A stretch of DNA of 64,000 bases from an uncultured Dehalococcoidia bacterium (GTDB lineage: Bacteria > Chloroflexota > Dehalococcoidia > Lucifugimonadales > UBA1127). Shown here piece by piece: positions 7,598 to 32,122 of the stretch (positions are counted from its first letter, which is position 1; each line of letters begins with the position of its first letter). The stretch lies in contig OX638292.1 in assembly GCA_951812285.1 (NCBI GenBank), forward strand, positions 971,008 through 1,035,007, written 5' to 3'. The notes beneath the pieces were generated by a model. The model had not been told where the DNA came from and searched no databases. It saw only the letters and a program-made list of their open reading frames with translations. The position numbers and the translations under genes were made by a program.

Positions 7598-8242
7598 ATG
7601 CTCGCGACCCACACCATAGACACCGAGGACCTGTTCACCATCTCAGCGGGCGGGTTCTCGGCAACCGCCGACGCCTTCGCCCGCGACGACCGCACGGACG
7701 GCCTCTGGTTCGTCTCGATGGTCGGCTCCCAGACGGCGCTCAAGGCGATCTGGGCGTCGCTGCTCAAGCAGCCGCCGGACGTTGCCCACATCATCAAAGG
7801 GGCGGACGGCATGGCGCTCAGCGGCGGCTACCAGCGGTGCGTCATCCCCTACGAGACCATCGGAACGTGGACGACCAAGATCGCCCGCCTGCCATCAACC
7901 GGAGGCTGGCACGCCCTCGTCTACACCAAGACGGCGGAGTTCGGCTACGAGAAGGACTCCTTCCTCCTGCTCGCCCAGAGCCAAGAGGAGGCCCCGGCGC
8001 TCCACCACCGCTTCCTCGACAAGCGCAGCCCGCTGCCGCTCCACGGCTCCTGGGCGGGATGGCTCTGGGCGCGGGGCATCGAGGAGGAGGAGATAGTTCC
8101 CCTACAGTCGGTCGGCATTTCCGCCTACCGGTGCTCCCCCAAGGCCCAGAAGCTCCGCGAAGACCTGTCCGCCGCCGTTGCGTCGGGCAGGCTCACGCTT
8201 CCCAGGGAGGAGACCGCGGCGGCGGGAGGCGCGACGCCATGA
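7598..8242 (+). CDS. Hypothetical protein
   Basis: AAAGGAG RBS before ATG 7598. Stop overlaps the next start (ATGA). No motif recognised. Confidence 0.45.
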   Translation: MLATHTIDTEDLFTISAGGFSATADAFARDDRTDGLWFVSMVGSQTALKAIWASLLKQPPDVAHIIKGADGMALSGGYQRCVIPYETIGTWTTKIARLPSTGGWHALVYTKTAEFGYEKDSFLLLAQSQEEAPALHHRFLDKRSPLPLHGSWAGWLWARGIEEEEIVPLQSVGISAYRCSPKAQKLREDLSAAVASGRLTLPREETAAAGGATP

Positions 8243-8748
8243 TCGACTACCTCTACGACGACGGCGGCCGGGCGCATGCCGGATACCGCGGCAAGACCGG
8301 GGACTGCGTCGTCCGCGCCATCGCCATCTGCGCCCGTAAAGAATACCGCGCCGTCTACGTGACGATGGCAGAGCACATGAAGCGCAACGGCTACGCCGCC
8401 AGCGGCAACGCCTACGCCACACGGGAGCGCAACCGCAAAGCGCCCCACCGCAGGGGCCAGCTCACCGCCAAGCGCGTCCAGGACAGCGTTCTCGAAGCCT
8501 ACGGTTTCCGGAAGGTCAGCCTGCCGGCGGGAGAGCGGCCCACGTTCACGGAGGCACACCACCGGTTCGGCGACTGCGTCGTCGGCACCACCAAGCACGT
8601 TGCGGCCATCGTGGACGGCGCCCTCCGGGACACATTCGACGGGCGCACCTACGAGTGGGAATTCGAGACGCGCGAGCGCAAGGCCCAGTCCGTCTGGGTG
8701 CGGTGCCGGTCGGCGGAAAAAGTAAGAAGGAAAGGAGAGACGACATGA
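8239..8748 (+). CDS. Hypothetical protein with a possible Cys/His pair
   Basis: GDCVVRAIAI ... TKHVAAIVDG. ATGA overlaps on both sides. Function not recognised. Confidence 0.45.
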   Translation: MIDYLYDDGGRAHAGYRGKTGDCVVRAIAICARKEYRAVYVTMAEHMKRNGYAASGNAYATRERNRKAPHRRGQLTAKRVQDSVLEAYGFRKVSLPAGERPTFTEAHHRFGDCVVGTTKHVAAIVDGALRDTFDGRTYEWEFETRERKAQSVWVRCRSAEKVRRKGETT

Positions 8749-16183: not shown

Positions 16184-16579
16184 ATGACTGACTCAAACGG
16201 GACCACAACGACCACGACCATGTGGCAGGACAACCACAGCGGGCTGCGCAGGCACAAGCTCATGACGAAGGAGCTCGCAGACACCATCCCGCCCCTGTAT
16301 GCCAACGACGGCGCAGACGACCCAGACGCCGTGGTCGCCAGGGTGAAGCTGTTCAGCCCCTATGCCAACTGGACCTGGTACATCACGGAATGGGATGCGG
16401 AGACCGGAACCTGCTTTGGCCTCGTCGAGGGGTTCGAGACGGAACTGGGGTACTTCGATCTCTCGGAGATGGCCGAGGCCACCGTGTTCGGCGGCGTCCC
16501 CGCCGTGGAGCGCGACCTCTACTGGAAGCCGACGACCATCGGCGAGATTAGGAGGCAGGCGTCAGGGATAGCGGCCTAG
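16184..16579 (+). CDS. DUF2958-family protein
   Basis: IPPLYANDG...VKLFSPYANWTWYITEWD...CFGLVEGFETELGYFDLSE is the characteristic DUF2958 pattern common on ICEs and plasmids. Confidence 0.7.
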   Translation: MTDSNGTTTTTTMWQDNHSGLRRHKLMTKELADTIPPLYANDGADDPDAVVARVKLFSPYANWTWYITEWDAETGTCFGLVEGFETELGYFDLSEMAEATVFGGVPAVERDLYWKPTTIGEIRRQASGIAA

Positions 16580-16630
16580 CGATAGGCGGTCACGGATGCA
16601 ATGAGAGACAAGCACAGAAAGGAGAAGGAC

Positions 16631-17137
16631 ATGCCAGACAAGGTTGGAACGGAAGCAACCTGCTCGGACGCGCCGAGCGTGGACGACGATCTCTTCGGCG
16701 ATGCGGCGGCGGACGATAAGGCCGCCGTGTCCGTCGATGAGCAGAACGCCGACGGGGAGGCCCCGCAGGAGACGCAGCACGACTCCGATGACGCCGGGGA
16801 ACCTGCCGACGCCGAGGCGGAGGCCGCCTCGACGGACGACCTGAAGGTCGTCGTGTCCATCAAGGGAGGCAGGGCCACCATCGGGGTGCAGCGGCCCTCG
16901 GCGGACCCGCACATCGAGACGTTCGACGACCTGGACGAGACCGGGCTGACGACTGAGGTCCCGGCGGTGATCGAGAGGGCAAGGGCCAGGTGGGAGGAGA
17001 CGCCCAAGCATCCCGCCTATGAGCGGCCCGTTCCCCCGGCCCGGCGTCGCAACCGGCGTCAGCAGGGGACGGCACAGGACGCAACGGCGGAGACGCAGGA
17101 AGCCGAGACGCAACAGCAAACACTGAGGCTGTTCTAG
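16631..17137 (+). CDS. Hypothetical acidic protein (possibly PRTRC protein E-like); its 3' end is duplicated at 25820-25958
   Basis: AAAGGAGAAGG RBS, acidic N-terminal half, C-terminus ...ETPKHPAYERP...QQQTLRLF. Confidence 0.5.
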   Translation: MPDKVGTEATCSDAPSVDDDLFGDAAADDKAAVSVDEQNADGEAPQETQHDSDDAGEPADAEAEAASTDDLKVVVSIKGGRATIGVQRPSADPHIETFDDLDETGLTTEVPAVIERARARWEETPKHPAYERPVPPARRRNRRQQGTAQDATAETQEAETQQQTLRLF

Positions 17138-17154
17138 GCTGGAGCGCGACACAC

Positions 17155-17189
17155 GGGGGGAGGATGCCGCATCGCGGTGTCCTTCCCCC
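17155..17189 (+). terminator. GC-rich stem-loop after gene 16631-17137 (no U-tail)
   Basis: GGGGGGAGGATGCCGC-atc-GCGGTGTCCTTCCCCC. The paralogous copy just upstream of 26020 carries compensatory changes (AGGGA...TCCCT). Confidence 0.4.
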
Positions 17190-17329
17190 GCCGTCCATGT
17201 ATGCGGCCTTTTTTGCGTTTCCGGGGATGGCCTTCCCTGAGCGACCCCTTTTGCGTTTAAGGAGGAACAAGAAGGATGATTGCGAGAGTCGAAACGAAGC
17301 CGAAGAGGCAGACCTACAGGAGGTATGAA

Positions 17330-17743
17330 ATGGAGACAATGCACCTGTTCGACACCCACGCCGACGAAGAGAAGGCCCTCTGCGGGGACGATGTCCCCGT
17401 CCACGCCCGTCAGGGCGTGGACGAATACCTGGAGCGGCGCAAGGACGGTCTTCCGGTCGGGAACGTCTGCGAGCCGTGCAAGGTTCATGCGGTCCGGTTG
17501 GCCGAGAACCGGATTCTGAAGTTGGAGGCCGATGCGGAAGAGCTCCGGGTCGGCGCCGACGAGCTTGAGAGGATGGCGGCGGGTTCTCCAGCGGATGGGG
17601 CAGAGCGAGTCTTGGCGCGCTACCGCAACAGCGCGAGTGGGAGGCGGTCGGAGGCCGACGGGTTCGAGGATGAGGCTCGTGAGTTGCGAAGGCTTGTTGA
17701 GAGGTTGAAGAGAGAGACCGGCCTGAACGTCCCTGGCCGCTAG
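17330..17743 (+). CDS. Hypothetical protein (Cys-containing N-terminus, coiled-coil C-terminus)
   Basis: AGGAGG-N6-ATG at 17330. The gene is bracketed by copies of the CCTTTTGCGTTT motif. Confidence 0.45.
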   Translation: METMHLFDTHADEEKALCGDDVPVHARQGVDEYLERRKDGLPVGNVCEPCKVHAVRLAENRILKLEADAEELRVGADELERMAAGSPADGAERVLARYRNSASGRRSEADGFEDEARELRRLVERLKRETGLNVPGR

Positions 17744-17823: not shown

Positions 17824-18069
17824 TCAGCCGGTGAAGATGTGGCCGAGGCCCATACTCTCGGCCAGTTCAAGCAGCGCCCTGCGGTGCTGGTAGTTGGGCC
17901 GCGTCCTGCCCTCGGACCATCGCCATACGGTGTGCCGATAGGTCCCGAGGCGGCGAGCGATCTCCGACCACGAATAGCCCGACTCCCTCTGGAATCTCTT
18001 GAGACGCTCCGGGAAGTCCACCGGGATTGCGTAGGTCTCTCTGGGATGGTGTATGCGCTGTCTTGGCAT
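17824..18069 (-). CDS. 81-aa helix-turn-helix protein, copy A
   Basis: MPRQRIHHPRETYAIPVDFPERLKRFQRESGYSWSEIARRLGTYRHTVWRWSEGRTRPNYQHRRALLELAESMGLGHIFTG. The SWSEIARRLG..HTVWRW segment looks HTH-like. The protein is identical to copy C apart from two N-terminal substitutions. Confidence 0.7.
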   Translation of the reverse strand: MPRQRIHHPRETYAIPVDFPERLKRFQRESGYSWSEIARRLGTYRHTVWRWSEGRTRPNYQHRRALLELAESMGLGHIFTG

Positions 18070-18309
18070 CGAGCCGGTCCTTCAAGGTCCGCGCTCCTTC
18101 CTGGAGGAATCCAAGCTGGGCAGCATCCCTGAGCAGAGCGGAGCCTGCAGCCCTCGCGCTGACCCGGCGGACATCACCCGTTGACAGTGTCCGTGGATCC
18201 GTTGGACGCAAACGGCCAACCCTCCCGCGCGGGCGCTAGTCCGGAGCGGCTCCCCAGGCCATTGCGGTGAAAGCGCCGCGGCCGTTGGCGTTGATGGCCG
18301 CGACACTGA
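17837..18309. repeat. ~473-bp near-identical direct repeat, copy A (HTH gene, spacer, FN3 3' end)
   Basis: Aligns by eye almost base-for-base with 19695-20166. Confidence 0.8.
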
Positions 18310-18560
18310 TCGTGTAGCGGGTCCCGCTGGTCAGGCCGGAGAGCGTCGTGCTCCTCGGATTGGTGCAGCCTGTACCACCGTGACAGATGCGCAGCACGTC
18401 CATCTCGGTTGGCCTCGGGGTCACCATGACCTCTGTATGGGGGCCGCCAGAAGCCTTGCTATAGCGAAGAACATACGCATAGATGTCAGCGCCGCCGTCG
18501 TTAGCGGGCGGGTCCCAGCATCGCGGCCCGCGCGGCGCGCCGATGTGGACCATCAGGGCG
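18236..18560 (-). pseudogene. Terminal FN3 domain fragment, probably the decayed 3' part of an LRR-FN3 gene
   Basis: WDPPANDGGADIYAYVLRY...LSGLTSGTRYTISVAAINANGRGAFTAMAWGAAPD* is one FN3 domain. Upstream sequence is only FN3-like in another frame. The ORF-track start at 18829 is a GTG with no RBS. Confidence 0.5.
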
Positions 18561-19590: not shown

Positions 19591-19926
19591 CTATCTCTCC
19601 TTTCGCAGGCGGCTCAGACACCCCCTGAACTCCTGCGTCCGTTTAGCAATGGAGGTGTGGGCGCTCCAACGACGCCTCAACCTGAATCGCGAAAATGTGG
19701 CCGAGCCCATACTCTCGGCCAGTTCAAGCAGCGCCCTGCGGTGCTGGTAGTTGGGCCGCGTCCTGCCCTCGGACCATCGCCATACGGTGTGCCGATAGGT
19801 CCCGAGCCGGCGAGCGATCTCCGACCACGAATAGCCCGACTCCCTCTGGAATCGCTTGAGACGCTCCGGGAAGTCCACCGGGATTGCGTAGGTCTCTCTG
19901 GGATGGTGTATGCGCTGTCTTGGCAT
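19591..19926 (-). CDS. HTH protein copy B, with the native C-terminus replaced by read-through sequence
   Basis: The first 73 aa are identical to copy A. Identity ends at the duplication junction (19695), giving a 111-aa ORF. Possibly non-functional. Confidence 0.5.
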   Translation of the reverse strand: MPRQRIHHPRETYAIPVDFPERLKRFQRESGYSWSEIARRLGTYRHTVWRWSEGRTRPNYQHRRALLELAESMGSATFSRFRLRRRWSAHTSIAKRTQEFRGCLSRLRKER

Positions 19927-20166
19927 CGAGCCGGTCCTTCAAGGTCCGCGCTCCTTCCTGGAGGAATCCAAGCTGGGCAGCATCCCTGAGCAGAGCGGAG
20001 CCTGCAGCCCTCGCGCTGACCCGGCGGACATCACCCGTTGACAGTGTCCGTGGACCCGTTGGACGCAAACGGCCAACCCTCCCGCGCGGGCGCTAGTCCG
20101 GAGCGGCTCCCCAGGCCATTGCGGTGAAAGCACCGCGTCCGTTGGCGTTGATGGCCGCGACACTGA
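19695..20166. repeat. ~472-bp near-identical direct repeat, copy B
   Basis: Matches 17837-18309. Confidence 0.8.
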
Positions 20167-20240
20167 AGGCTGAGGAGATTTCCGAGTTCCGGCGGTATCT
20201 CTCCGCTCAACTGATTGTTGGTGAGCGACAGTTTGATTAC
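20095..20240 (-). pseudogene. FN3 3'-end remnant fused directly to an LRR-repeat remnant
   Basis: 20095-20166 matches 18236-18309. 20167-20240 resembles LRR coding sequence (...ccggcggtatctctccgctcaactgattg...). About 0.6 kb present in copy A is missing here. Confidence 0.5.
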
Positions 20241-21951: not shown

Positions 21952-22143
21952 TCACAGATGCCGCTGGTTGGGCCGGACGCCCTCGCTCCTCCACCGCCGT
22001 ATCGTTAGGGGGTAGGTCTCGATGCGGCGAGCGATCGCCGCCCACGTCAGCCCCGACTCCTCCCTGAACCGCTTCAATCACCCCGGAAAGTCGTCGGGGA
22101 AAACGTAGACCCTTCTGCTGTGCTGTATGCGCTGTCTCGGCAT
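21952..22143 (-). pseudogene. Divergent, interrupted fourth copy of the HTH gene
   Basis: Reads MPRQRIQHSRRVYVFPDDFPG*LKRFREESGLTWAAIARRIETYPLTIRRW..., with an in-frame stop and a truncated C-terminus. Confidence 0.5.
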
Positions 22144-22260
22144 CGGGCCGGTCCTTCACGAATCGGCTCTTCCTCCTGCCGACCCAGCGGACATCACCCG
22201 TTGACGGTGTCCGTGAACCCCGATGGACACCCACCGGCCACCCCCCCCCGCTCCGGCGCC

Positions 22261-22385
22261 AGTCCGGGGCTGCGCCGAATGACATGGCGGTGAAGGGGCC
22301 GCGGCCGTAGACGTTGATGGCCGAGACGCTGATCACGTAGCGGGTCCCGCTGGTCAGGCCGGAGAGCGTCAGGCTCCTCGGATTC
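22261..22385 (-). pseudogene. FN3 3'-end remnant joined directly to leader copy 1 (internal deletion of a whole FN3 gene)
   Basis: ...LSGLTSGTRYVISVSAINVYGRGPFTAMSFGAAPD with the stop lost. The junction lies at the shared heptamer tcggatt (22378-22384). Confidence 0.5.
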
Positions 22386-22535
22386 AGGCGGTGAAAATCG
22401 GGGGGGGGGGGGTAGAACTAACGCGCTATTATCGGCGCGCCGGGCGCGGGATATCGCGCCGGCCGATACCTGTTCAGGTCTTCTCTGTTCGACAGTCACG
22501 AGACACCTCCTATTTTGTGGGTATACTCCCCCACG
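22386..22535 (-). promoter_or_regulatory. Leader copy 1 (truncated promoter, SD plus GTG uORF start at 22499, poly-C13)
   Basis: Homologous to the leaders at 25452-25700 and 29401-29615. Confidence 0.5.
22400..22412. repeat. Homopolymer G13 (C13 on the gene strand)
   Basis: Counted directly. Confidence 0.9.
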
Positions 22536-22538
22536 ACT

Positions 22539-25451
22539 TTAGGGGTCGTTGGGGACATGGGCCGACCACGTGGTGGCCCAGGGGCCGCCGCCGTTGGCGT
22601 TGTGGGCCTGCACCTCCACGTCGTACTCCGTTCCCGCGGTGAGGCCCGTGATCGTGTACGACCGCGGGTTCTCGCAGAAGGGCACCCCGCACATGCGAAG
22701 GGTCGGGCGCGGGTAGAGCACGTCGCTCGTGGTCCAGCTTCCGTCTCCGTCTCGTTCCCGGTGGCGCACCTGGTAGGCGTGCGCGAAGGAGCGGTCGCTC
22801 TGTTCCGGCGGCTCCCACTCGACGACCAGCGACTCGCTGCCCGGCGTGACCTCGATCCCGGTCGGATAGTCCGGAGGCTTGTTCCAGAGGATGTGTGTTT
22901 GGACGGTCAGGATCTCGGAGGTGAACCCCAGGGTGCGCGTCACCACAGGGTCCATCCCGTCGGTGACTCGCCCCCTGACCCGGACCTGCCAGGTGTTTGG
23001 AGTTGCCGTACCTGGGTCCAGCCCGGTGATCGTGTGGGTGCGTTTGGTTGTGTCCGTGACGACGTTGTTGGTCCAGGCCCCGCTCGTGCCCTGGCGGTGC
23101 TGCACGACGTAGGCGTCGAGGTTGTCGGGGTCCGACTCGTAGCCTTCCCAGACGACGACCAGTTTGCCGAGCCCGCCCGACGCGTACACGAGGAAGGCCG
23201 ACGGGCCGCCCACCTCGCCCTCATATAAGGAGGAGGTTGTCGACACGCCACCAACTGTTTGGGTGACGCGGGCCGTCAGCGAGCCGGTTGCATCCAGGCT
23301 GACAATAGTTCGACCCGGACAGTTGATGGTGTCACCGCCGTTCACAGCGCATATGGCGCTTCCAAAGCCCTTGTTGCTATCGGAATAAAAGAATGTCCTG
23401 CCAATGCCAGCGTTGTGGGTGGGGGTGTTGCTATCGAGCCAGACCTGCGTCGGCTCCGACCACACGGTGACGGGCGCCGCGGGGGTCGACCAGGCATCCT
23501 GGGTAGTATTCAGGACGCTGTTGGTGAACCGGGCGGCGATGCGGACGGTATAGACATTCCCGTCGGTCAACCCGGTGATGCGGTGCCTGCGCGCAACGAA
23601 GGGATCCGATGGCTCGGTGTCGCCGGGGTCGGCAAGCACGACCGTTTCTGCGTCGGCTGTGCCGGTCTGCCACTCCACGACGTAGGCGGTCAGCGTGGAT
23701 CCGTCGGGGGAGGAGGCGGGCGAGCCCCAGGTGAGGGAGATGCCGCTGTTGTTGTCGGCCTCCACGCGAAGGTTACGGGGGCTGTCCGTATCCGCGGGCC
23801 TTGTGGGGTCGGCCAGGACGGTGGCGGTGAGCGCATCGCTGTCGTGGGTATGCGTGCAATCGGCGGCGGCGCCGATGCAGCGGGCGTCGGCGGCAACCAC
23901 TCTGAAGTCGTATGCGGTTCCTGCATCGAGCCCGCCGAAGGCGAAGGGCTGCGTCCACCATATCGCGTTGGGAAGCTTGTACGACGAAGCCCAGTAGTCG
24001 TGGCCCGCTTCCTTCCACTGCAGCCACGCCCCGCCGGACACGCAGCCCGTTCCCGGTCCGCCCCTGTTGGTCCAGGACCCGTTGACCCCGCCGGCTATGT
24101 CCGCTGTCACCGTCAGGCTGATGTCGCAGACCGCCGGCACATTCCCCTGGCCGGTCGGGCCTTCCTGGGGAGCGCGTGGGGTGGACTTCCTGGACGGGTA
24201 GATGGTCTGCACGCGGTACTCGTACATGCCGGGCGTCAGATCGTTGAGGACGTGACGGGTGGCGAGCGGCCCCACGGTCTCGGACTTCCAGTCGCCGCCG
24301 GAGGCGCTCCTGGCCTCGACCGAGTAACCGGACGGCTCGCATGCGTTTTCGTCGCTGGGCGCATCCCAGAACGCCACCAACGCGCGTGGAACGCCGAGGG
24401 CCGACACGTCCTCGGGCGGCGCCTGCTCACAGGCCGGTTCCCAGCCGATGAGGAAGTTCCCGTTAAGGGAGACGGAGAGGCCGTCGGGGTCGGTCGCCGT
24501 CAGCGTGACCGTGATCGGCAGCGGGTTGGGCAGCGGGGGCTGGATGGTGTCCCAGTCATCGTCGGCATCGGCCTGGAAGAACACTCGCAGTACGTTCTCA
24601 AGGGGGTAGCCGCTTTGCGCCGCCTGAGCATCGCTCCCTCCATCATTATGGAATTGCAAGACGTCCACCAGCCCGCTGTCGCCGCCGGAGATGGCCACGG
24701 CGTAGGTCAGATTATCGCCGTCGGGGTCGGAGAAGATGCCGTAGAAAGGCTTGCTGACCAGGGTGCCACGGGGTGCGTTGTTGTTCCCGGTGAACCAGGA
24801 GTAATAGTCGGCCTGTGTATTCAACACCGGCGCCCGGTTGGGTACCGGCGTGGGCGTGGGCGCAGGCGTAGGCTCCGGCTCAGAGGCCGATGCCTCCATC
24901 GCAGTCAACTCGGCGGCCACCGGAACCCACCGCTGCCAGCCGTTGTCGGCATAGCCCTGGGCCTCGGCGGCGGTCATGTCGTCGAGGGCGCCAAAGGACT
25001 TCAGCACGCGCATCCAGCGCAGCACGTGGTCATGGCCGTTATCCGTCTCCCGCGAGTAGCCCCGAACGTCGGCGACCACCTGCGAGTCCGGCTCGTTGCT
25101 CCCCGGCGCGTTCTCCAGCTTCGTCAGCTCCTCCACTACCGGGTTCCAGCGTTTTGCCCAATACTTGTCGGCGAGGTCCTGGGCCTCGGCAGCGGTCATA
25201 CCGTCCAGGGCGTCGAGGGTATGCAGAACTCGGAACCAGCGATGCACGTGGTCGTAGCCGTTGTCCGTCTCCGCAGCGTAAGTCCAGACGTCGGCCACCA
25301 CCTGCGCGTCGGGCTCGTAGTCGCCCTGGGCGCCTGCGGGACTGGTCCCCGACCAGGACACCGCCAGGACGGCAAGGAGGGCGAGGGACAGCGCCGCGAG
25401 ACGGCCCATCGGCCACGGGTGGAAGAATGGGGCGAGCGTGGGGTGCCTCAT
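22539..25451 (-). CDS. Large secreted multi-FN3 protein (970 aa) with a tandem N-terminal ~70-aa domain and a cadherin-like segment
   Basis: Signal peptide MRHPTLAP...LAVSWSGTSPAGAQ. Two copies of EPD.QVVADV..Y..ETDNG.DHV.RW.RVL......D.MTAAEAQ. Multiple FN3 signatures (SGISLTWGSP..., YVVEWQ..., GTEYDVEVQAHNANG). ATG 25451 was chosen for GGAGGTG-N5-ATG. Confidence 0.8.
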   Translation of the reverse strand: MRHPTLAPFFHPWPMGRLAALSLALLAVLAVSWSGTSPAGAQGDYEPDAQVVADVWTYAAETDNGYDHVHRWFRVLHTLDALDGMTAAEAQDLADKYWAKRWNPVVEELTKLENAPGSNEPDSQVVADVRGYSRETDNGHDHVLRWMRVLKSFGALDDMTAAEAQGYADNGWQRWVPVAAELTAMEASASEPEPTPAPTPTPVPNRAPVLNTQADYYSWFTGNNNAPRGTLVSKPFYGIFSDPDGDNLTYAVAISGGDSGLVDVLQFHNDGGSDAQAAQSGYPLENVLRVFFQADADDDWDTIQPPLPNPLPITVTLTATDPDGLSVSLNGNFLIGWEPACEQAPPEDVSALGVPRALVAFWDAPSDENACEPSGYSVEARSASGGDWKSETVGPLATRHVLNDLTPGMYEYRVQTIYPSRKSTPRAPQEGPTGQGNVPAVCDISLTVTADIAGGVNGSWTNRGGPGTGCVSGGAWLQWKEAGHDYWASSYKLPNAIWWTQPFAFGGLDAGTAYDFRVVAADARCIGAAADCTHTHDSDALTATVLADPTRPADTDSPRNLRVEADNNSGISLTWGSPASSPDGSTLTAYVVEWQTGTADAETVVLADPGDTEPSDPFVARRHRITGLTDGNVYTVRIAARFTNSVLNTTQDAWSTPAAPVTVWSEPTQVWLDSNTPTHNAGIGRTFFYSDSNKGFGSAICAVNGGDTINCPGRTIVSLDATGSLTARVTQTVGGVSTTSSLYEGEVGGPSAFLVYASGGLGKLVVVWEGYESDPDNLDAYVVQHRQGTSGAWTNNVVTDTTKRTHTITGLDPGTATPNTWQVRVRGRVTDGMDPVVTRTLGFTSEILTVQTHILWNKPPDYPTGIEVTPGSESLVVEWEPPEQSDRSFAHAYQVRHRERDGDGSWTTSDVLYPRPTLRMCGVPFCENPRSYTITGLTAGTEYDVEVQAHNANGGGPWATTWSAHVPNDP

Positions 25452-25648
25452 GCCGTCACCTCCCAAAGGAGGTGGGCGTAAGGCTCAGGAATATCGGATT
25501 CAGGCGGTGAAAATCGGGGGGGGGGGGGGGGTAGAACTAACGCGCTACCAAGGGCGCCACGAGCGGGGGTGGGATCGAACGCGGGCGTCACGCCGACCGT
25601 CGCCGGTATCGCTGTTGCCAATTCAGGTTGTCTCTGTACGAGAGCCAA
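25448..25648 (-). CDS. Candidate leader peptide (uORF), 66 codons, poly-proline; stop overlaps the main ATG
   Basis: GGGGAGGG-N6-TTG (25648). Sequence ...ALVLPPPPPRFSPPESDIPEPYAHLLWEVTA*. TGA at 25450-25448 overlaps ATG at 25451-25449. The SD and start are conserved in all three leader copies. Confidence 0.4.
   Translation of the reverse strand: MALVQRQPELATAIPATVGVTPAFDPTPARGALGSALVLPPPPPRFSPPESDIPEPYAHLLWEVTA
25457..25474 (-). promoter_or_regulatory. SD-sequestering hairpin CACCTCC-TTTG-GGAGGTG
   Basis: Perfect 7-bp stem whose 3' arm is the main gene's SD. The same stem with a different loop occurs at 29406-29423. Confidence 0.55.
25516..25531. repeat. Homopolymer G16 (C16 on the gene strand)
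   Basis: Counted directly. Confidence 0.9.
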
Positions 25649-25685
25649 ATTGAACCCTCCCCTTTTCCGGGCATATTCCCCCACG

Positions 25686-25772
25686 ATTTTACCACCGTAT
25701 GTGTGACGGAGCCGTGACGATTTGAGGCAATGTACGTGACACCTTGTGACGTTTCGCAGAATGCGGCATAAT
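25686..25772. promoter_or_regulatory. Divergent promoter region, copy 2
   Basis: Minus strand: extended -10 TGgTAAAAT (25694-25686). Plus strand: TTGTGA (25744-25749)-N17-CATAAT (25767-25772). GTGAC(G) boxes at 25703, 25714, 25736 and 25746. Confidence 0.45.
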
Positions 25773-25819
25773 TGCCCTTATAGACGCCCATTGACTCCCT
25801 ATCGGCAGGCCATCGAGGT

Positions 25820-25958
25820 GACGCCCAAGCATCCCGCCTATGAGCGACCCGCTCCACCGGCCCGGCGTCGCAACCGGCGTCAGCAAGGGACGACACAGGA
25901 CGCAACGGCGGAGACGCAGGAAGCCGAGACGCAACAGCAGACGCTGAGGCTGTTCTAG
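25820..25958 (+). pseudogene. Duplicated 3' end of gene 16631-17137, fused to the SD of the histidine-kinase-type promoter
   Basis: 25820-26055 aligns with 16999-17225 (coding tail, stem-loop and TTTTGCGTTT motif). The track ORF 25746-25958 is a junction artefact. Confidence 0.6.
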
Positions 25959-26071
25959 GGCGGGCCGACGGAGCGCAACGCACGGGGGAGGGATGCCGCA
26001 TGGCGGTGTCCCTCCCCCGCCGACTGCAGGTGCGGCCTTTTGCGTTTCAGACCCTTGCTGTGCGTCCCGTC

Positions 26072-26317
26072 TCAGCCGGTGAAGATGTGGCCGAGGCCCA
26101 TACTCTCGGCCAGTTCAAGCAGCGCCCTGCGGTGCTGGTAGTTGGGCCGCGTCCTGCCCTCGGACCATCGCCATACGGTGTGCCGATAGGTCCCGAGCCG
26201 GCGAGCGATCTCCGACCACGAATAGCCCGACTCCCTCTGGAATCGCTTGAGACGCTCCGGGAAGTCCACCGGGATTGCGTAAACCTCTCTGCTGTAATGG
26301 ATGCGCTGTCTCGGCAT
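26072..26317 (-). CDS. 81-aa HTH protein, copy C
   Basis: Differs from copy A at two N-terminal positions only (HHPRETY versus HYSREVY). Confidence 0.7.
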   Translation of the reverse strand: MPRQRIHYSREVYAIPVDFPERLKRFQRESGYSWSEIARRLGTYRHTVWRWSEGRTRPNYQHRRALLELAESMGLGHIFTG

Positions 26318-26607
26318 CGAGCCGGTCCTTCACGAATCGGCGCTCCCTCCTGGAGGCATCCAAGCCGGGCAGCATTCCTGCGAAAGGCGGAGCGGGGAGC
26401 CCCCGCGTTTCTGCATGTATGCCGCTCTTTTTGCGTTTCAGGCCCCTTCCTGTCCATCTATGGCCCATCTGGGTACCCCGGAAGGCCGACGACGACGGCT
26501 AGCCTACGCAACGGGAGTCACCTGTTGACGGTGTGCGTGATCCCGATGGACGCCCACCGGCCAACCACCCGCGCCGGGGTTGTTGGCCGGCGCGGGAACT
26601 CACCGTG

Positions 26608-29400
26608 CTATTTGGGGGTGACGGTGCCCGCCGAGACCCACCCGCTGCCGCCGTTCACGTTGCGCGCCTGGATGGCCACCGTGTATGCCGTCCCGGATGT
26701 AAGGCCGAAGAGCGTTTGGGTGCTCCCAACCGAGCGTATTATCAACGGTGTGTGGAAAACCACGTTCCGGTAGATTGGATCGCTGCCCGAAGCGGTTAGG
26801 CGAACGCGGTAGTAGTGGATCCCGGAAGGTCCCGGCTCCGGATGCGTCCAGCTGACATCGATATTCCCTTCGTCACTCGTCGCCGCGGCGGATACGCCGG
26901 TCGGCGTTCCGGGCAGTCCCGTCTGCGTATCGCCGACGGTGACTGTGTACTCTTGCCAACGGGCGCCCAGGAACCGCCCCTCGTCCGGCTCATTGCCGTT
27001 GGCGCACTGCTGCGCCTCCGCACCGGCGGTGTTGGAGCAGGGGAAGACCGTGATCTTGTACTCGCCGCTGTCCAGGCCGGTAATCTCGTGATGGTAGCGG
27101 TCGTGGACTGCTTCCTTGTCGTCGTCCTTGTCGACCGGGACCCAGACTACCGTGCCGCCCACCTTCTGGTACCTGATCACGTAGGAATTGACTTGCTTGC
27201 CCGTACGCGCGGGGTATGAATGACGCCAGCTTATACCCAGAACACCGTCGCCGCCCGACGCCCACGACATCTGGATGAATCCCGCATCAACGGAGAATTC
27301 GCCAATTTTGGGCGTATTTACAGTACTGAGTGAGCCATTATTCGAAGCGATGTTGTCATCCGTTCGCCCAATCTCAGCGTACGCATGAACGTTGTATACG
27401 CCGCCTTCAGCGATGTCCAAACTCACGAGAGTGCCTGGCGGGCAGGCGATTTGGGAACCGGAACCGGGGTTGATGAAGCATTGCGCCGAGACAGGAGAGA
27501 CACTCGTTCGTACGTTCATGAACATACGACCGATTTGGAAGTGACGATTCGGCGTGTTGTCCCAGAACCACACCATGAACGGCTCTCCGTCGGAGGGCGC
27601 CTTCACGGGCGTGGAATAGCGGGTCACCGTCGCTCCACCGCTCGTCCCCTTTGTGCCAACCTCGATCCAATAGGACTTTTCGGAATCAAGCAAATCAGTC
27701 AGCTTGTATGCCCCGATATCTTTCGTATCGTCGCACACCATCGTCACTGCGTTGAAGTTCCGGCAAAAATCCTTGGCCACATCGACCGTGGAGAACTCGT
27801 TAGAGCCGGCCTCACGATAGCGCACAACGTAGCCCGTGACGTTGGTCACACCGGGCGCAGGACCGCTCCACTGGACCAAAGACTCCCTGGCGAGATTGGA
27901 TATGACCTCCACGTCGGCAGTGCCCGCTACGGGAGTGATGGTGACCTTAGCGCTGGTCTGCGTCGTGCCGTTGCTTGCGATGGTTTCGATCCGAAAGTCA
28001 TACGCAACCAGGTCCATATCGCCCCAGATGAACTTCCTGTCCTCGACTTTGTACTCGTCCGAAGAGACCCACTCCGTGTCGGCACTCTTCTTCCACTCGA
28101 CGCGGATGCCGCCGGAATCGCAGGTGTCGCTGGTGGTCCATGACCCGCTGACCTCGTGGGCTTCTTCAGTAGTGAGGGTCAGGGTGATGGTGCAATGGGA
28201 AGAGGGCATGGTTATGGGCTCAGGCTCATAGGTGGCCGAGACGGTCACCTGGAAGTCGGGCAGGCCGAGGTCGAATACCGTGACGGACGTATCATCCGGG
28301 CCCGCCGTCGTATGCAACGTGAGCCCTTCTTCCCAATCGATCCGGATGATGAACCCGGTGAGGTCGCAGGACTCGGGGGCTTCGGGCGTCGCCCAGGAGA
28401 CGACGATCTCCTGCTCCGCGCGTATGGCCGTCACGCTACCCGGCTCGCCGCCGGCGCAGTCGGGCGCCGGTTCGGACCAGGTAACCGTGATGGGGGCCGA
28501 CGTTGCCGACTCCCCGGAATCGTAGCTGACCGTCAAGCGGATGCGCCAAGTCTCCGCCTTGCTGTTGCTGGATCGGAAGGTGGAAAAGCTCCCCAAGGAA
28601 TACCACTCCCCACCACCAAAGTCGACCTCCCAGCTGTACGAAGGCGTCTCTCCCTCGGGTGCGTTGGTGATGGTCGCCGTCACCGTCGTAGCTTCATCCA
28701 CCTCGGGATTGGCCGGGCTGGCAGTGATGGACAGTCCGACGGACTCGGCCGGGACCGGCTCCGGCGTAGGCGTGGGTGTAGGTTCGGGAGTTGGTTCAGG
28801 AGTGGGCTCTGGGGTGGGCGCAGGCGTAGGCTCCGGCTCAGAGGCCGATGCCTCCATCGCAGTCAACTCAGCGACCACAGGGTCCCAGCGAGCTGCGGTG
28901 TACAGGTCGGCATAACCCTGGGCCTCGGCGGCGGTCATGCCGTCGAGGGCGTCGAAGGTGTGCAGCACCCGGAACCAGCGATGCACGTGGTCGTATCCGT
29001 TTTGGGTCTCCGCCGCGTAGCCCCGGATGTCGGCGATGACCTGTGAATCCGGTTCGCCGCTATTGAGAGCCGCTACCACAGGCTCCCATCGCGTCCAGCC
29101 CCTGTCGGCATAGCCCTGGGCCTCGGCGGCGGTCATGTCGTCAAGGGCGTCGAAGGTGTGCAGCACCCGGAACCAGCGATGCACGTGGTCGGGGCCGTTT
29201 GCCGTCTCCTTCGCGTAAGTCCAGACGTCGGCAACCACCTGCGGGTCGGGTTCGTAGTCATCCTGCGCGCCAGCGGGAGAGGTCCCGGACCAAGACACGG
29301 CCAGCATGGCGAGGAGGACGAGGGACAGCGCCGCAAGGCGGCCCAGGGGCCACCGGCGCAGGGACGGGGCGGGAGCGAGAGTGGAAGTTGGGGGCCTCAT
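26608..29400 (-). CDS. Large secreted multi-FN3 protein (930 aa), paralog of 22539-25451
   Basis: Same signal peptide and tandem N-terminal domain, TPEP linker, several FN3 modules (TGYVVRYRE..., YYRVRLTASG..., GTAYTVAIQARNVNG). ATG 29400 has GGAGGTG-N5. Confidence 0.8.
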   Translation of the reverse strand: MRPPTSTLAPAPSLRRWPLGRLAALSLVLLAMLAVSWSGTSPAGAQDDYEPDPQVVADVWTYAKETANGPDHVHRWFRVLHTFDALDDMTAAEAQGYADRGWTRWEPVVAALNSGEPDSQVIADIRGYAAETQNGYDHVHRWFRVLHTFDALDGMTAAEAQGYADLYTAARWDPVVAELTAMEASASEPEPTPAPTPEPTPEPTPEPTPTPTPEPVPAESVGLSITASPANPEVDEATTVTATITNAPEGETPSYSWEVDFGGGEWYSLGSFSTFRSSNSKAETWRIRLTVSYDSGESATSAPITVTWSEPAPDCAGGEPGSVTAIRAEQEIVVSWATPEAPESCDLTGFIIRIDWEEGLTLHTTAGPDDTSVTVFDLGLPDFQVTVSATYEPEPITMPSSHCTITLTLTTEEAHEVSGSWTTSDTCDSGGIRVEWKKSADTEWVSSDEYKVEDRKFIWGDMDLVAYDFRIETIASNGTTQTSAKVTITPVAGTADVEVISNLARESLVQWSGPAPGVTNVTGYVVRYREAGSNEFSTVDVAKDFCRNFNAVTMVCDDTKDIGAYKLTDLLDSEKSYWIEVGTKGTSGGATVTRYSTPVKAPSDGEPFMVWFWDNTPNRHFQIGRMFMNVRTSVSPVSAQCFINPGSGSQIACPPGTLVSLDIAEGGVYNVHAYAEIGRTDDNIASNNGSLSTVNTPKIGEFSVDAGFIQMSWASGGDGVLGISWRHSYPARTGKQVNSYVIRYQKVGGTVVWVPVDKDDDKEAVHDRYHHEITGLDSGEYKITVFPCSNTAGAEAQQCANGNEPDEGRFLGARWQEYTVTVGDTQTGLPGTPTGVSAAATSDEGNIDVSWTHPEPGPSGIHYYRVRLTASGSDPIYRNVVFHTPLIIRSVGSTQTLFGLTSGTAYTVAIQARNVNGGSGWVSAGTVTPK

Positions 29401-29404
29401 GCCG

Positions 29405-29569
29405 TCACCTCCCGCAGGAGGTGGGCGCAAGGCTCAGGAATATCGGATTTAGGCGGAGAAAATCGGGGGGGGGGGGGGGGGGTAGAACTAACGCGCTATT
29501 ATCGGCGCAACGGGCGCGGGATATCGCGGCGGCCGATACCTGTTCAGGTTGTCTCTGTACGATAGCCAA
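29405..29569 (-). CDS. Candidate leader peptide (uORF), 54 codons, poly-proline; stops 4 nt before the main ATG
   Basis: GGGAGGTG-N5-TTG (29569). Sequence ...ALVLPPPPPPDFLRLNPIFLSLAPTSCGR*. TGA at 29407-29405 lies inside the main SD region. Confidence 0.4.
   Translation of the reverse strand: MAIVQRQPEQVSAAAISRARCADNSALVLPPPPPPDFLRLNPIFLSLAPTSCGR
29465..29482. repeat. Homopolymer G18 (C18 on the gene strand)
   Basis: Counted directly. Confidence 0.9.
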
Positions 29570-29606
29570 GTTAGCACCTCCCACGTTACGGGCATATTTC
29601 CCCACG

Positions 29607-29693
29607 ATTTTACCACCGCAGCCGTGACGCAGCCGTGACGATTTGAGCCAATTTGCGTGACACCTTGTGACGTTTCGCAGAATGCGGCATAAT
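29607..29693. promoter_or_regulatory. Divergent promoter region, copy 3, between the FN3 gene and the hybrid kinase gene
   Basis: Minus strand: TGgTAAAAT (29615-29607). Plus strand: TTGTGA (29665-29670)-N17-CATAAT (29688-29693). GTGAC(G) boxes at 29624, 29635, 29657 and 29667 (11- and 10-bp phasing). Confidence 0.5.
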
Positions 29694-29746: not shown

Positions 29747-32122
29747 TTGGACCGGCACGACGAGCTGCACCGACGGATACAGGAGCTGGAAGAGCGCCTC
29801 TCGCGCCTGAGCGGGGCCAGCCTCCGCATCAACGAGAGCCTCGACTTCGACACGGTGTTGCAGGAGGTGGTGGACGGGGCCAGGGGGCTGACGGCCTCAC
29901 GCTACGGGGCAATAACCGTTCTCGGCGAAGCCGGGCAGACACCCGACTTCATCGTCTCCGGTCTCACCGGGGAGGAGCACCAGGGTCTGTGGGACATGCC
30001 GGAGGGACGGGGATTCTTCGAGTATCTCAGCGGGCTGGAGGAGCCCCTGCGGGTCTCGGACGTCGACGGCCACCTGCGGGCGTTGGACATGCCCGGGTTC
30101 CTGCCCTCGGTGCCGGTGAAGTCCCTGCTGGTGGCGCCCATCCGCCACCAGGGGGTCGGGGTCGGGACGATCTATCTGGCCCATGACACGGGCGACCGGG
30201 AGTTCACGCGGGAGGACGAGGAGACGCTGGTGCTCTTCGCGTCCCAGGCGGCGATGGCCATCGCCAACGCCCGCAGGCACCGAGAAGAACGCCGGGCCAG
30301 GGCCGACCTGGAGACCCTGATAGACACCTCCCCCGTGGGCGTCGCGGTCTTCGACGCCGGAACGGGAGCGCCCGTGTCCTTCAACCGGGAGGCCCGGAGG
30401 ATCGTGGACAGCCTGCGCGATCCCGGCCAGTCGCCGGAGGAGCTTCTGGAAACAATGATCTGCAGGCGCGCCGACGGGCGGGAGGTCTCCCTGCGGGAGT
30501 TCCCGATGGCCGAGCTCCTGAGCAAGGGGGAAACGGTGCGTGCCGAGGAGATCGTCATGCGCGTTCCCGATGGACGTTCCGTCACCGTCCTGCTCAACGC
30601 CACGCCCACCCAATCCGAAGAGGGCGCGGTCGAGTCGGTGGTCGTCACCCTACAGGACATGGCCGATGTGGAGGAGCTGGAGCGGCTGCGGGCCGAGTTC
30701 CTGGGGATGGTGAGCCACGAGCTGAGGACTCCCCTGACCTCCATTACGGGCTCCGCATCCACGGTGCTGGACTCAGCGAAGGATCTGGACCCCGCCGTGG
30801 TGCGCCAGTTCTTCCGCATCATCAAGGATCAAGCCGAGCACATGAACGATCTGGTCTCCGACCTGCTGGACGTGGCCCGCATCGAGACGGGCACCCTGCC
30901 GGTCGGCCCCGAACCCGCCGAGGTGGCCGTGCTGGTGGACCGGGCGAGGAATGGGTTCACCAACGCGGGGGGCAAGAACATCCTCGCCATCGACGTTGAG
31001 CCGGACCTTCCCCTGGTGATGGCGGACCGGCGGCGCATCGTGCAGGTGCTCGGCAACCTGCTGTCCAACGCGGCCCGGCACTCCCCGGAATCGTCCGTCA
31101 TCAGGTTGAGAGCGGTGCGGGACGGCGTACACGTGGCGGTCTCGGTGGCCGACGAGGGGCGGGGCATCCCCTCCGAGAGCCTGCCTCACCTGTTCCGCAA
31201 GTTCTCCGGGGCACAGTCCGAGGAGCAGGGAGGGGACACCGGGCTGGGCCTCGCCATCTGCAAGGGCATAGTGGAGGCGCACGGGGGACGCATCTGGGCC
31301 GAGAGCGAGGGGCCGGGAACGGGGGCGTGCTTCACCTTCACGCTGCCATCGGTCGAGGAAACAGCGGCGACCACCATTTCGTCCATATCGACGCGGCGCG
31401 AGCAGAAGGCGGAGGAGGAGCGGCTGCGCATCCTCGCGGTGGACGACGACCCCAACGATCTCCGCTACGTCCGCGACACCCTCGCCAAGTCGGGCTACGA
31501 CCCGGTGGTGACCGGGGACCCGCAGGAGGCGCTCCGCCTCGTGGCGGACGAGAGGCCGGAGCTTGTGCTGCTCGACCTGATGCTTCCGGGAACGGATGGC
31601 ATCGAGCTGATGAAGGACATCCTCGATGTGGCGGACGTGCCGGTCATCTTCCTGTCCGCCTATGGGCGGGAGGAGCTCGTCGCCAGGGCCTTCGACACGG
31701 GGGCCGCCGATTACGTGGTCAAGCCCTTCTCGCCGACGGAGCTTGCGGCAAGGATCAGGGCGTCCCTGCGAAAGCGGGCGGTTGCGGAGCCGTCGGAGCC
31801 GTACGTGCTGGGCGATCTGACCATCGACTACGCCGGGCGAAGGGTGACCCTGGCCGGCCAGCCTGTGCACCTCACCCCGACCGAGTACCGGGTGCTGGCC
31901 GAAATCTCGGCCAACGCAGGGCGGCTGGTGACCTACGAGCGCCTGCTGGACCGGGTATGGGAGAAAAGAGAGAGCGACGGCGACGTGCGGCCCATTCGCA
32001 CCATCGTCCGCAGACTCCGCCGCAAGCTCGGCGACGACGCCGACAACCCCACCTACATCTTCACCGAGCCCCGCGTCGGCTACCGGATGTCGGAGGGGGA
32101 GGGGCCATCCGCGACCCGCTGA
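29747..32122 (+). CDS. Hybrid sensor: GAF/PAS histidine kinase fused to a receiver and an OmpR-type winged-helix DNA-binding domain
   Basis: H-box VSHELRTPLTSI, N-box GNLLSNAARH, G-boxes DEGRGI and GLGLAICKGIVEAHGG. Receiver ILAVDDDPNDL...LLDLMLPGTDG...KPF. Winged helix LTPTEYRVL...RRLRRKLG...YIFTEPRVGYRM. TTG start with GAGGTGA RBS. Confidence 0.85.
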   Translation: MDRHDELHRRIQELEERLSRLSGASLRINESLDFDTVLQEVVDGARGLTASRYGAITVLGEAGQTPDFIVSGLTGEEHQGLWDMPEGRGFFEYLSGLEEPLRVSDVDGHLRALDMPGFLPSVPVKSLLVAPIRHQGVGVGTIYLAHDTGDREFTREDEETLVLFASQAAMAIANARRHREERRARADLETLIDTSPVGVAVFDAGTGAPVSFNREARRIVDSLRDPGQSPEELLETMICRRADGREVSLREFPMAELLSKGETVRAEEIVMRVPDGRSVTVLLNATPTQSEEGAVESVVVTLQDMADVEELERLRAEFLGMVSHELRTPLTSITGSASTVLDSAKDLDPAVVRQFFRIIKDQAEHMNDLVSDLLDVARIETGTLPVGPEPAEVAVLVDRARNGFTNAGGKNILAIDVEPDLPLVMADRRRIVQVLGNLLSNAARHSPESSVIRLRAVRDGVHVAVSVADEGRGIPSESLPHLFRKFSGAQSEEQGGDTGLGLAICKGIVEAHGGRIWAESEGPGTGACFTFTLPSVEETAATTISSISTRREQKAEEERLRILAVDDDPNDLRYVRDTLAKSGYDPVVTGDPQEALRLVADERPELVLLDLMLPGTDGIELMKDILDVADVPVIFLSAYGREELVARAFDTGAADYVVKPFSPTELAARIRASLRKRAVAEPSEPYVLGDLTIDYAGRRVTLAGQPVHLTPTEYRVLAEISANAGRLVTYERLLDRVWEKRESDGDVRPIRTIVRRLRRKLGDDADNPTYIFTEPRVGYRMSEGEGPSATR

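Follow-up and report, generated by a model that had tools for sequence, protein, structure and literature searches.

The 64-kb stretch of Dehalococcoidia DNA studied here (the window, whose numbering is used throughout) carries on its minus strand genes for large secreted proteins with FN3 domains, and three copies of a leader sequence accompany the FN3 genes 2 and 3 on the same strand. Each copy contains an upstream open reading frame (uORF) that reads a long poly-C tract; in copies 2 and 3 this frame continues through a hairpin around the ribosome-binding site (RBS) of the FN3 gene and ends at or next to its start codon. We interpret these leaders as a frame-dependent device of translational coupling with a hypermutable repeat, in other words as phase variation exerted through a uORF, a reading that in our judgement stands midway between acceptance and doubt. 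Among the observations in its favour is the conservation, beyond the tract, of a stop codon in each of the three reading frames.

This conservation was established on orthologous leaders, which were gathered through the homologs of FN3 protein 2 and then through the contigs encoding them; the leader sequence itself was not used for selection. The leaders derived from FN3 proteins are L005a/b, L006a, L007a/b, L008, L014, L015 and L136a/b, and L003 came from a motif scan. The comparison set comprises 14 leaders or RBS segments, partial ones being kept apart, and most of the uORF counts cover 12 leaders. Eleven further leaders from other Dehalococcoidia assemblies show the same parts in the same order as the window copies, and one nhmmer profile recovers all leaders (E = 1e-26 to 1e-63), with exactly three copies in the window. 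The common layout consists of an extended -10 element, a GGGAGG Shine-Dalgarno sequence (SD) with TTG, GTG or ATG, an open uORF, the poly-C tract, the stops in three frames and a hairpin sequestering the SD of the main gene. It is kept at 68-80% nucleotide identity across several lineages of metagenome-assembled genomes (MAGs), and L007b precedes a different protein, of 2439 aa and SwmB-repeat/hemolysin type, with the same signal peptide. Three homologous proteins (L011, L012 and L013) have no homologous leader, the upstream regions of L011 and L012 being unrelated. A metagenome scan with CCCCCCCCRATTTTCAC gave more than 120 matches, none of them leader-related on inspection, and Rfam returned nothing at gathering thresholds but a tRNA, with one chance-level match at E <= 1.

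The upstream open reading frame and its stops

After the tract, 11 of the 12 leaders scored have a single stop in each of the frames A, B and C, placed at set distances from where the main gene starts (Table 1). The TGA of frame B occupies its position in 11 of these 12, and is also present in L014 and L136b. At the site of frame C, too, 11 of the 12 have a stop, and no sense codon occurs: apart from the window copies, it is TAG in L005a and L008 and TAA in L007, L015 and L003, the exception being L136b, which comes from an indel-prone assembly. As for frame A, the second codon of the main gene is always AGG, AGC or AGT (AGG makes up 16% of the Arg codons in the window), and the overlapping TGA is thereby preserved. 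The frame actually found is A in copy 2, L005a, L006a, L007a, L008, L014 and L015, B in copy 3 and L003, and C in L005b and L007b, so that copies 2 and 3 exit their tracts in different frames. The uORF thus ends at or next to the main start in nine intact leaders out of eleven (seven with the ATGA overlap, two with the TGA 4 nt upstream), and at the early stop in the other two. Such upkeep of a stop per frame is understandable only if each frame receives ribosomes, which implies translation of the uORF and a genuine shift of frame by the tract. Since the frame of the main gene has a conserved stop, the tract cannot serve to fuse the uORF to the FN3 protein.

The beginning of the uORF is constrained in a similar manner. 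Its start codon interchanges only among valid starts (TTG in six, ATG in five and GTG in one of the 12 leaders), and a GGGAGG-type SD stands 4-8 nt ahead of it in ten, the spacing being 12 nt in L005a and L006a. From the start to the tract, the uORF frame contains no stop in any of the 12 leaders, against 14 and 15 stops in the other two frames; the chance of such an open frame is 0.23-0.75 per leader, and roughly 1e-4 over about nine partly independent leaders. Between L005a and L006a, which are 92% identical, the sole indels in the leader and the 350 nt upstream adjoin the tract and sum to +3 (one C and 2 nt), by which frame A is kept. L014 has lost the tract and retains a 37-codon uORF ending in ATGA, and in L007 an annotation pipeline had already called a gene over the uORF. 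The length of indels upstream of the tract, taken modulo 3, was tried as a further test and tells nothing, since it makes no difference in which phase a homopolymer is entered. Altogether we consider it fairly probable, from this comparison of leaders, that the uORF is translated.

The first-pass annotation of this DNA had described, in all three leaders, a strong SD with a near-cognate start, ORFs of 66, 54 and over 60 codons reading the poly-C as four to six prolines, and a uORF stop that overlaps the ATG in copy 2 and precedes it by 4 nt in copy 3. Its coordinates are all correct on the minus strand, and so are both stops; tracts of C13, C16 and C18 give 4, 5 and 6 prolines in copies 1, 2 and 3, and the ORF of copy 1 (AGGAGG-tgtctc-GTG) turns out to extend over 101 codons from GTG 22499 into a gene remnant. 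A sensitivity to tract length had also been proposed, and the stops maintained in all three frames agree with it. By contrast the middle of copy 2, which had been taken for an unrelated replacement, is the longer form common to the orthologs L008, L007 and L136a; it is copies 1 and 3 that are shorter, by 30 nt (10 codons).

The tract, the hairpin and the promoter

The three leader tracts are the sole homopolymers of at least 10 bases in the 64 kb, and those of the orthologs occupy the same position in the leader. Their lengths are 7, 8, 8, 10, 11, 12, 13, 16, 18, 18, 21 and 23, with C6TC8 in L008 and none in L014. Pairs with 92%-identical flanks differ in their tracts (C15 in L001 and C14 in L004, two loci described below; C7 in L005a and C8 in L006a), and L005b and L137b, 99.9% identical, are equal in total length. 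The tracts of L136, the closest strain (C23 and C10, to be compared with C16 and C13 in the window), are discounted, as is the odd frame layout of L136b, because of the homopolymer indels present in the coding regions of this long-read assembly: at 8125-8640 single-base indels of this kind (GACCCACGTG for the expected GACCACGTG) split the second FN3 gene. Among the short-read contigs, three independent ones have their first bases in a poly-C, and two of these also have their last bases in the next tract; either sequencing failed at long C/G runs, or the population is heterogeneous in tract length.

Lengths that range from 7 to 23 C, and that appear to differ among close relatives, speak for a hypermutable repeat and against a tuned pause site. 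The tract moreover lies within a conserved ORF followed by a separate conserved stop for each frame, a position where a change of length could alter the output. We lean towards the view that it is both hypermutable and put to biological use. The interrupted tract of L008 (2937-2951) is identical in L009 and L010, and its T should stabilise it; the CCTCCC that it contains is the exact complement of the uORF SD GGGAGG, with which it is paired in the fold.

Parts of the leader are also met elsewhere. The motif GTTAGTTCTA followed by poly-C lies at 6689-6713 of L001 (C15) and 4649-4672 of L004 (C14), at the 5' end of the gene for an unrelated membrane-anchored protein of about 410 aa, which gave only a weak GDSL-like match (E = 0.05). 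The upstream frame and the main ORF share their phase at C15 but not at C14; this locus may be a classical in-gene switch using the same module, and poly-C modules thus seem to be used more widely in the lineage than in FN3 genes. In L006 (5105-5144), a third large gene, encoding 1941 aa with a similar signal peptide, keeps the start region GTGACGGCATGAGG and a small hairpin, with neither poly-C nor long uORF, so that the combination of RBS and signal peptide seems to have a wider distribution than the complete leader.

The last conserved element is the hairpin at the main start. In the window copies the 40-nt RBS segment is predicted to fold at about -22 kcal/mol with SD and AUG both buried; the fold of copy 2 reaches -22.3 kcal/mol (z = -4.4), and the covariance model scores 68.3 bits there (25446-25485). 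The minimum-energy fold pairs the SD in each of the 14 RBS segments (4-8 of the 9 bases of the SD region, 6-8 except in L003) and usually the AUG as well, with energies of -10 to -23 kcal/mol (n = 14). Two types can be distinguished. Type I, CACCTCC-N3-5-GGAGGTG, folds at -21 to -23 kcal/mol in the window copies, L005b, L015, L137a and L136b; type II, CAGCCC-N7-GGGCTG, folds at -11 to -16 kcal/mol in L007a/b and L008, and occurs with a bulge in L003. They differ by two double-sided changes, from G:C to C:G in the pair at -8 and from A:U to G:C in the pair at -10. In addition the second pair is G·U in L008 and L136b, L014 has one mismatch, and the loops vary freely (TTTG, TGCG, TGTC, TTTC, CAC).

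This covariation amounts to a few independent events, in pairs counted by hand from single-sequence folds. RNAalifold on a MAFFT alignment called 3 pairs, the arms of the two types being misaligned there. The covariance model of type I gives 37-71 bits to type-I leaders and 20-22 bits to those of L007, and misses L008, L003 and L014; its alignment includes reverse-strand palindrome matches and was not used for pair statistics. A hairpin with the SD of the FN3 gene as its 3' arm had been part of the first-pass annotation, which gave it 7 bp: it does exist at both sites, and the predicted structure is larger, with two outer helices. The annotation had further named the lack of this hairpin in orthologous leaders as an outcome that would speak against its proposal; we find it conserved there, with double-sided changes between clades. 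We are accordingly confident that the hairpin is real.

Upstream of the leader, CGTCAC-type direct repeats are arranged in two pairs before both copies 2 and 3 (control regions 25703-25772 and 29624-29693). Their layout recurs in orthologous leaders, where the sequence of the repeats has diverged, and they are candidate binding sites for an activator of the OmpR type. At the extended -10 site the orthologs carry TGGTAAAAT, TGGCATAAT, TGGTAGTGT, TGGTAACGT or TGGTAAATT. From the repeats, the extended -10, the promoter-like site on the opposite strand and the synteny with a divergent regulator, we infer a transcription start some 30 nt ahead of the uORF, near 25679 for copy 2 and near 29600 for copy 3, which would place the tract 130-160 nt inside the transcript. 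The association of regulator gene and leader is found again in L008/L009, L014 and L136, and the divergent kinase/regulator is probably the transcriptional regulator of the FN3 genes. Intercistronic copies of the leader (copy 1, L005b, L136b and L137b) have neither promoter nor repeats and yet retain the leader from the predicted +1 onward, which argues that the tract belongs to the transcript and not to the promoter.

Table 1. Features of the leaders, of the FN3 genes and of their surroundings (window coordinates unless a contig is named).
Feature	Position	Strand	Remarks
FN3 gene 2	22539..25451	(-)	970 aa; signal peptide and fn3 domains
FN3 gene 3	26608..29400	(-)	930 aa
Copy 1, promoterless leader remnant	22360..22541	(-)	SD AGGAGG 22511-22506; GTG 22499; poly-C13 22400-22412
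Copy-2 uORF SD GGGGAGGG	25655..25662	(-)	6-nt spacer ttcaat, then TTG 25648
Copy-2 uORF	25448..25648	(-)	66 codons from TTG; crosses poly-C and hairpin; TGA 25450-25448 overlaps main ATG 25451 (ATGA, frame A)
Copy-3 uORF	29405..29569	(-)	54 codons from TTG; SD GGGAGGTG 29582-29575; TGA 29407-29405, 4 nt before ATG 29400 (frame B)
Copy-2 poly-C, 16 C	25516..25531	(-)	poly-G on the plus strand; 5 prolines
Copy-3 poly-C, 18 C	29465..29482	(-)	6 prolines
Frame-A stop			TGA of ATGA/GTGA; overlaps main start
Frame-B stop			TGA 4 nt before start, in G(G/C)TGACGG
Frame-C stop (frame of the main gene)			33 or 51 nt upstream of start
Copy-2 frame-B stop TGA	25456..25458	(-)	inside GGAGGTGACGGCATG; 4 nt before ATG
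Copy-2 frame-C stop TGA	25500..25502	(-)	51 nt upstream of ATG
Copy-3 frame-C stop TAA	29449..29451	(-)	site homologous to the copy-2 TGA
Copy-2 stem-loop	25446..25483	(-)	inner CACCTCC-TTTG-GGAGGTG 25474-25457; middle GCC/GGC; outer CCTTA/TGAGG pairs AUG
Copy-3 stem-loop	29395..29434	(-)	inner helix 29423-29406, loop TGCG; -22.6 kcal/mol; covariance model 70.8 bits
Extended -10 element TGGTAAAAT, copy 2	25686..25694	(-)	TGn-type
-10 hexamer TAAAAT, copy 3	29607..29612	(-)	TGG before it
Four direct repeats, CGTCAC-N4-TGTCAC and CGTCAC-N5-CGTCAC	25703..25751	(-)	spacing 10-11 bp; last pair overlaps the -35 position; read directly
Promoter-like site TTGTGA-17-CATAAT	29665-29693	plus	promoter scan
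Divergent hybrid sensor kinase/response regulator	29747..32122	(+)	GAF-PAS-HisKA-HATPase-REC-Trans_reg_C in one polypeptide; OmpR-type DNA-binding domain; adjoins copy 3
Contig ends in tract	L137 1-77; L138 1-77, 3113-3124; L139 1-76, 3111-3117		short-read contigs

The proposed switch, its alternatives and known systems

We propose the following sequence of events. Transcription would start about 7 nt past the TGn-extended -10, probably activated by the divergent OmpR-type regulator on the CGTCAC repeats. Ribosomes would then initiate the uORF, of 37-66 codons, at its strong SD and TTG, GTG or ATG, a step that the comparison of leaders supports. Meanwhile the SD and AUG of the FN3 gene would be held in the stable stem-loop indicated by structure prediction and covariation, and only ribosomes traversing this stem-loop within the uORF would open it and hand over to the main start, after terminating on the ATGA overlap (frame A) or on the TGA 4 nt upstream (frame B). 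On this reading the FN3 protein would be translated only upon completion of the uORF. A gain or loss of one or two bases in the tract would move the ribosome among the three frames, two of which reach the main start; such changes can arise during replication through slipped-strand mispairing, to which slippage of RNA polymerase is probably added in the longest tracts. In frame C, termination would occur 33-51 nt upstream, before the stem-loop, and the RBS would remain closed. Large secreted surface proteins of FN3 or SwmB type would in this way be switched on and off, or graded, heritably yet reversibly, over and above their regulation by the two-component system. Ribosomes on the uORF may be slowed by the poly-C-encoded prolines, and in the off state the untranslated C-rich RNA may recruit Rho. 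Still more tentatively, and with doubts that outweigh our confidence, we suggest an undescribed three-state translational switch, serving sponge-associated Dehalococcoidia as a portable leader before large eukaryote-like surface proteins of several families, FN3 and SwmB-repeat proteins among them.

Several points weigh against this interpretation. Coupling, blockage by the hairpin and switching are all deduced from sequence. The early stop lies only 33 nt upstream in the type-II, L003 and L014 leaders, and a ribosome stopping there may disturb the hairpin and blur the contrast between on and off; the hairpins of these same leaders are weak, with energies of -10 to -16 kcal/mol and z between about 0 and -1. 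Very long tracts may yield RNAs of mixed frames through polymerase slippage. Frame A, found in seven of the 11 intact leaders, is only weakly enriched; by chance alone a given leader would have the open frame with a probability of 0.2-0.75, and frames A and B open with one of 0.3-0.7, so that the values per leader are modest, and the leaders share ancestry. Homopolymer lengths are error-prone in long-read assemblies, and those of the window come from a single consensus. Finally the substitutions in the uORF show no third-position bias, being evenly spread over the codon positions and mostly non-synonymous, and the uORF peptides have no match in Pfam. Given this lack of bias, the case for translation rests on the start site, the open frame and the stops, not on the peptide; we conclude, as far as such a comparison can tell, that translation of the uORF matters and that the sequence of its peptide does not.

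Other functions could be imagined for the tract. Poly(C) is the strongest known activator of Rho, and in the tna operon a leader peptide masks a Rho loading site; here too a C-rich, G-poor region lies within or just after a leader ORF. The leader might thus be a Rho-dependent attenuator in which ribosomes on the uORF mask the site, alone or combined with coupling. Indeed the 78-nt segments 29491-29414 and 25542-25465 have the top C/G ratios of the minus strand in the 64 kb (4.0 and 3.8, the 99.9th percentile being 2.9). However, this skew is mostly due to the tract itself and is much smaller in leaders with C7-C8 or no tract, and attenuation by itself explains neither the RBS hairpin nor the ATGA overlap. 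We regard the attenuator as unlikely, although Rho loading is plausible as a reinforcement.

The first-pass annotation had stressed a pause on the polyprolines that needs elongation factor P (EF-P); were the tract there to encode such a stall, FN3 translation would report EF-P activity or proline supply, and the variation in length would be incidental. There is a precedent in the Salmonella mgtCBR leader, whose ORF mgtP has three fixed consecutive Pro codons and controls transcription attenuation: both have consecutive Pro codons in a short leader ORF upstream of the regulated gene, but here 0-6 prolines are encoded by a pure homopolymer. Poly-C does read as proline in every frame, 3-6 consecutive prolines occur in 8 of the 12 leaders that were translated conceptually, and the main genes of the window rarely exceed PP. 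However, runs of at least three Pro codons, present in most leaders, are not conserved throughout: the uORF, the hairpin and the ATGA overlap are kept in L014, which has no tract, in L005a and L006a, which encode only PP, and in L008, which encodes PLPP. With only two prolines or none at all in several orthologs, a stall cannot lie at the heart of the mechanism and is at most an accessory that may modulate the flow of ribosomes. Besides, 13-23 C go far beyond what a stall requires, a ribosome stalled on the tract is about 40 nt short of the hairpin and cannot open it, and the conservation of stops in three frames is left unexplained. A sensor of EF-P activity or proline supply is, in our view, quite unlikely.

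The tract could also act as RNA structure, as a long-range anti-SD of the uORF or of the main gene, its length tuning the pairing and the open frame being incidental. In whole-leader folds it pairs with the uORF SD with a probability of about 1.0 in copy 2 and L008, 0.7-1.0 in L003 and about 0.8 in L005a; in L007a it partly pairs with the main SD, and the T interrupting the tract of L008 faces the A of GGGAGG. Such a mode of action has been reported for the 5' untranslated region (UTR) of Haemophilus influenzae hmw1A, where the repeat acts by pairing with a G-rich region (PMC12721329). On the other hand any C-run is predicted to pair with any G-run, the probability falls to 0.13 in copy 3 and near 0 in L005b and L007b, and the start codon, the stop-free frame, the frame-restoring indels and the three stops would all go unexplained; pairing as the function of the tract is very unlikely.

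Slightest, apart from the promoter role considered next, is the prospect that the leaders have no function at all, being a duplicated spacer in which the tract is a mutational accident or an assembly artefact and the open frame a by-product of a 63% G+C content. Purifying selection does not act on the peptide, stretches of 40-60 open codons arise readily in DNA so rich in G+C (P 0.2-0.75 per leader), and long-read homopolymer lengths are error-prone. Against this, the layout persists at the identities given above over several MAG lineages and before different genes (L007b), start and stop codons change only among valid alternatives, the hairpin covaries, and no other homopolymers of 10 bases or more exist in the 64 kb.

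A role in the promoter may be dismissed. In Bordetella fim genes, a poly-C tract of about 13-15 bases is the promoter spacer, upstream of surface-protein genes that are also under two-component control; an equivalent spacer between -35 and -10, setting promoter strength, could be read here from the AT-rich hexamer directly after the tract (GATTTT, AATTTT or GAAAAT) and the GTTCTA often found before it, but is rejected as next to inconceivable, because the sigma-70 scan gives no promoter-like site on the minus strand and hence none spanning the tract, because lengths of 7-23 cannot all fit a 16-18-bp spacer and because promoterless intercistronic copies exist, to which it may be added that the sequence before the tract is unconserved (GTTCTA, ATCAGT, CTGTAG, GAATTCT), that the conserved extended -10 and the activator-type repeats stand about 160 nt upstream of the tract and that the latter, unlike in fim, would lie about 130-160 nt inside the predicted transcript, within an ORF.

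The preferred reading, that of coupling dependent on the frame in which the uORF leaves the tract, can be compared with several known systems. To our knowledge, phase variation by simple repeats is documented almost only in host-adapted pathogens, where it acts through promoters or through the regulated gene's own frame. The leaders resemble the contingency genes of Neisseria, Campylobacter and Helicobacter in that a homopolymer longer than 7 nt, which appears to vary between close relatives, would set the stopping point of the ribosome through its length modulo 3 and so govern surface proteins. Poly-G examples with a frameshift in the coding region have been described in Campylobacter jejuni (bioRxiv 10.1101/2022.11.09.515450). 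Here, by contrast, it is an upstream ORF distinct from the regulated gene that holds the tract, no change of length would truncate the protein, and two frames end at the main start and one early. The hosts differ as well, the contingency genes belonging to pathogens and these leaders to uncultured sponge-associated Chloroflexi.

The unmasking of a structured RBS by upstream translation is classical in the ermC leader, in secM-secA and in the coupling of rpmI-rplT. As in our leaders, the downstream SD and AUG are there in a hairpin that upstream translation opens, and stop and start overlap or are adjacent; those systems differ in relying on drug- or secretion-dependent stalling or in serving stoichiometry, and we know of none among the three with a hypermutable repeat that changes the upstream frame. 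The literature yielded no case of a repeat lying within a coupled uORF; the lex2A/lex2B pair of H. influenzae is possibly related. Comparable in position are the heptamer repeat in the 5' UTR of hmw1A, which acts post-transcriptionally (PMC12721329), and the G-repeat in the leader of Helicobacter pylori tlpB, targeted by the small RNA RepG (PMC8295292). In both, as here, a variable repeat in the mRNA leader past the promoter would alter the output of an adhesin or receptor after transcription; the means are different, RNase III cleavage of a repeat hairpin or pairing with a small RNA, and neither repeat has been described in a coupled translated uORF.

If the proposed mechanism is true, this would be a distinct regulatory design, in which the full-length protein always remains intact and is made at two or three levels of expression. 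The leaders precede FN3, leucine-rich-repeat (LRR) and SwmB-type proteins, which are usually proposed to act in the contact between symbiont and host. Beneficial symbionts would then also vary their surface stochastically, with contingency loci comparable to those of host-adapted pathogens. In practice, the tracts break short-read assemblies, and homopolymer length in long-read MAGs would become biologically meaningful.

Genomic setting

The window has a G+C content of 63.5%, and its closest database sequences are Dehalococcoidia MAGs. A marine sponge is the source of the nearest relatives: the close relative L005, with 86% protein identity, comes from a metagenome of the sponge Aplysina aerophoba (whole-genome shotgun project MKWU). 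The three leader copies sit in an island of repeated modules encoding secreted FN3 and LRR proteins. A look-up of the same-genome paralogs P0015 and P0125 found neither on record.

Copy 1 starts exactly at the stop codon of gene 2 and holds only the 5' two-thirds of the leader, joined after AATCCGA to the last 45 or so codons of an FN3 domain (remnant region 22194-22541). In L005 and L137, a matching intercistronic leader precedes an intact FN3 gene of 866 aa; the FN3 gene behind its counterpart in L136 has a call shortened by assembly indels. Since these relatives keep a second FN3 gene behind the intercistronic leader, copy 1 is best seen as the deletion remnant of a two-gene operon. The next-longest homopolymer of the window, at 22241-22249, lies within this remnant, just past the FN3 fragment; it reads C9 on the plus strand and hence G9 on that of the gene.

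Two further repeats were noticed in the window. A 145-nt segment is duplicated at 94% identity at 16994-17138 and 25815-25959, one copy lying upstream of the promoter region of copy 2 and the other inside a 308-aa ORF (16562-17488) that has no match in Pfam. A 3' module stands in four copies behind different surface-protein genes (17848-18361, 19705-20218, 21991-22384 and 26096-26544); it combines the C-terminal part of an FN3 domain with an inverted repeat that is imperfect (GGACATCACCCGTTGACAGTGTCC) and a repeated stretch some 300 nt long. The copy at 21991-22178 carries an in-frame stop, and in the matching region of L136 the gene call is a small ORF resembling HTH_23. The repetition of this module could be due to cassette exchange or gene conversion between the paralogs.

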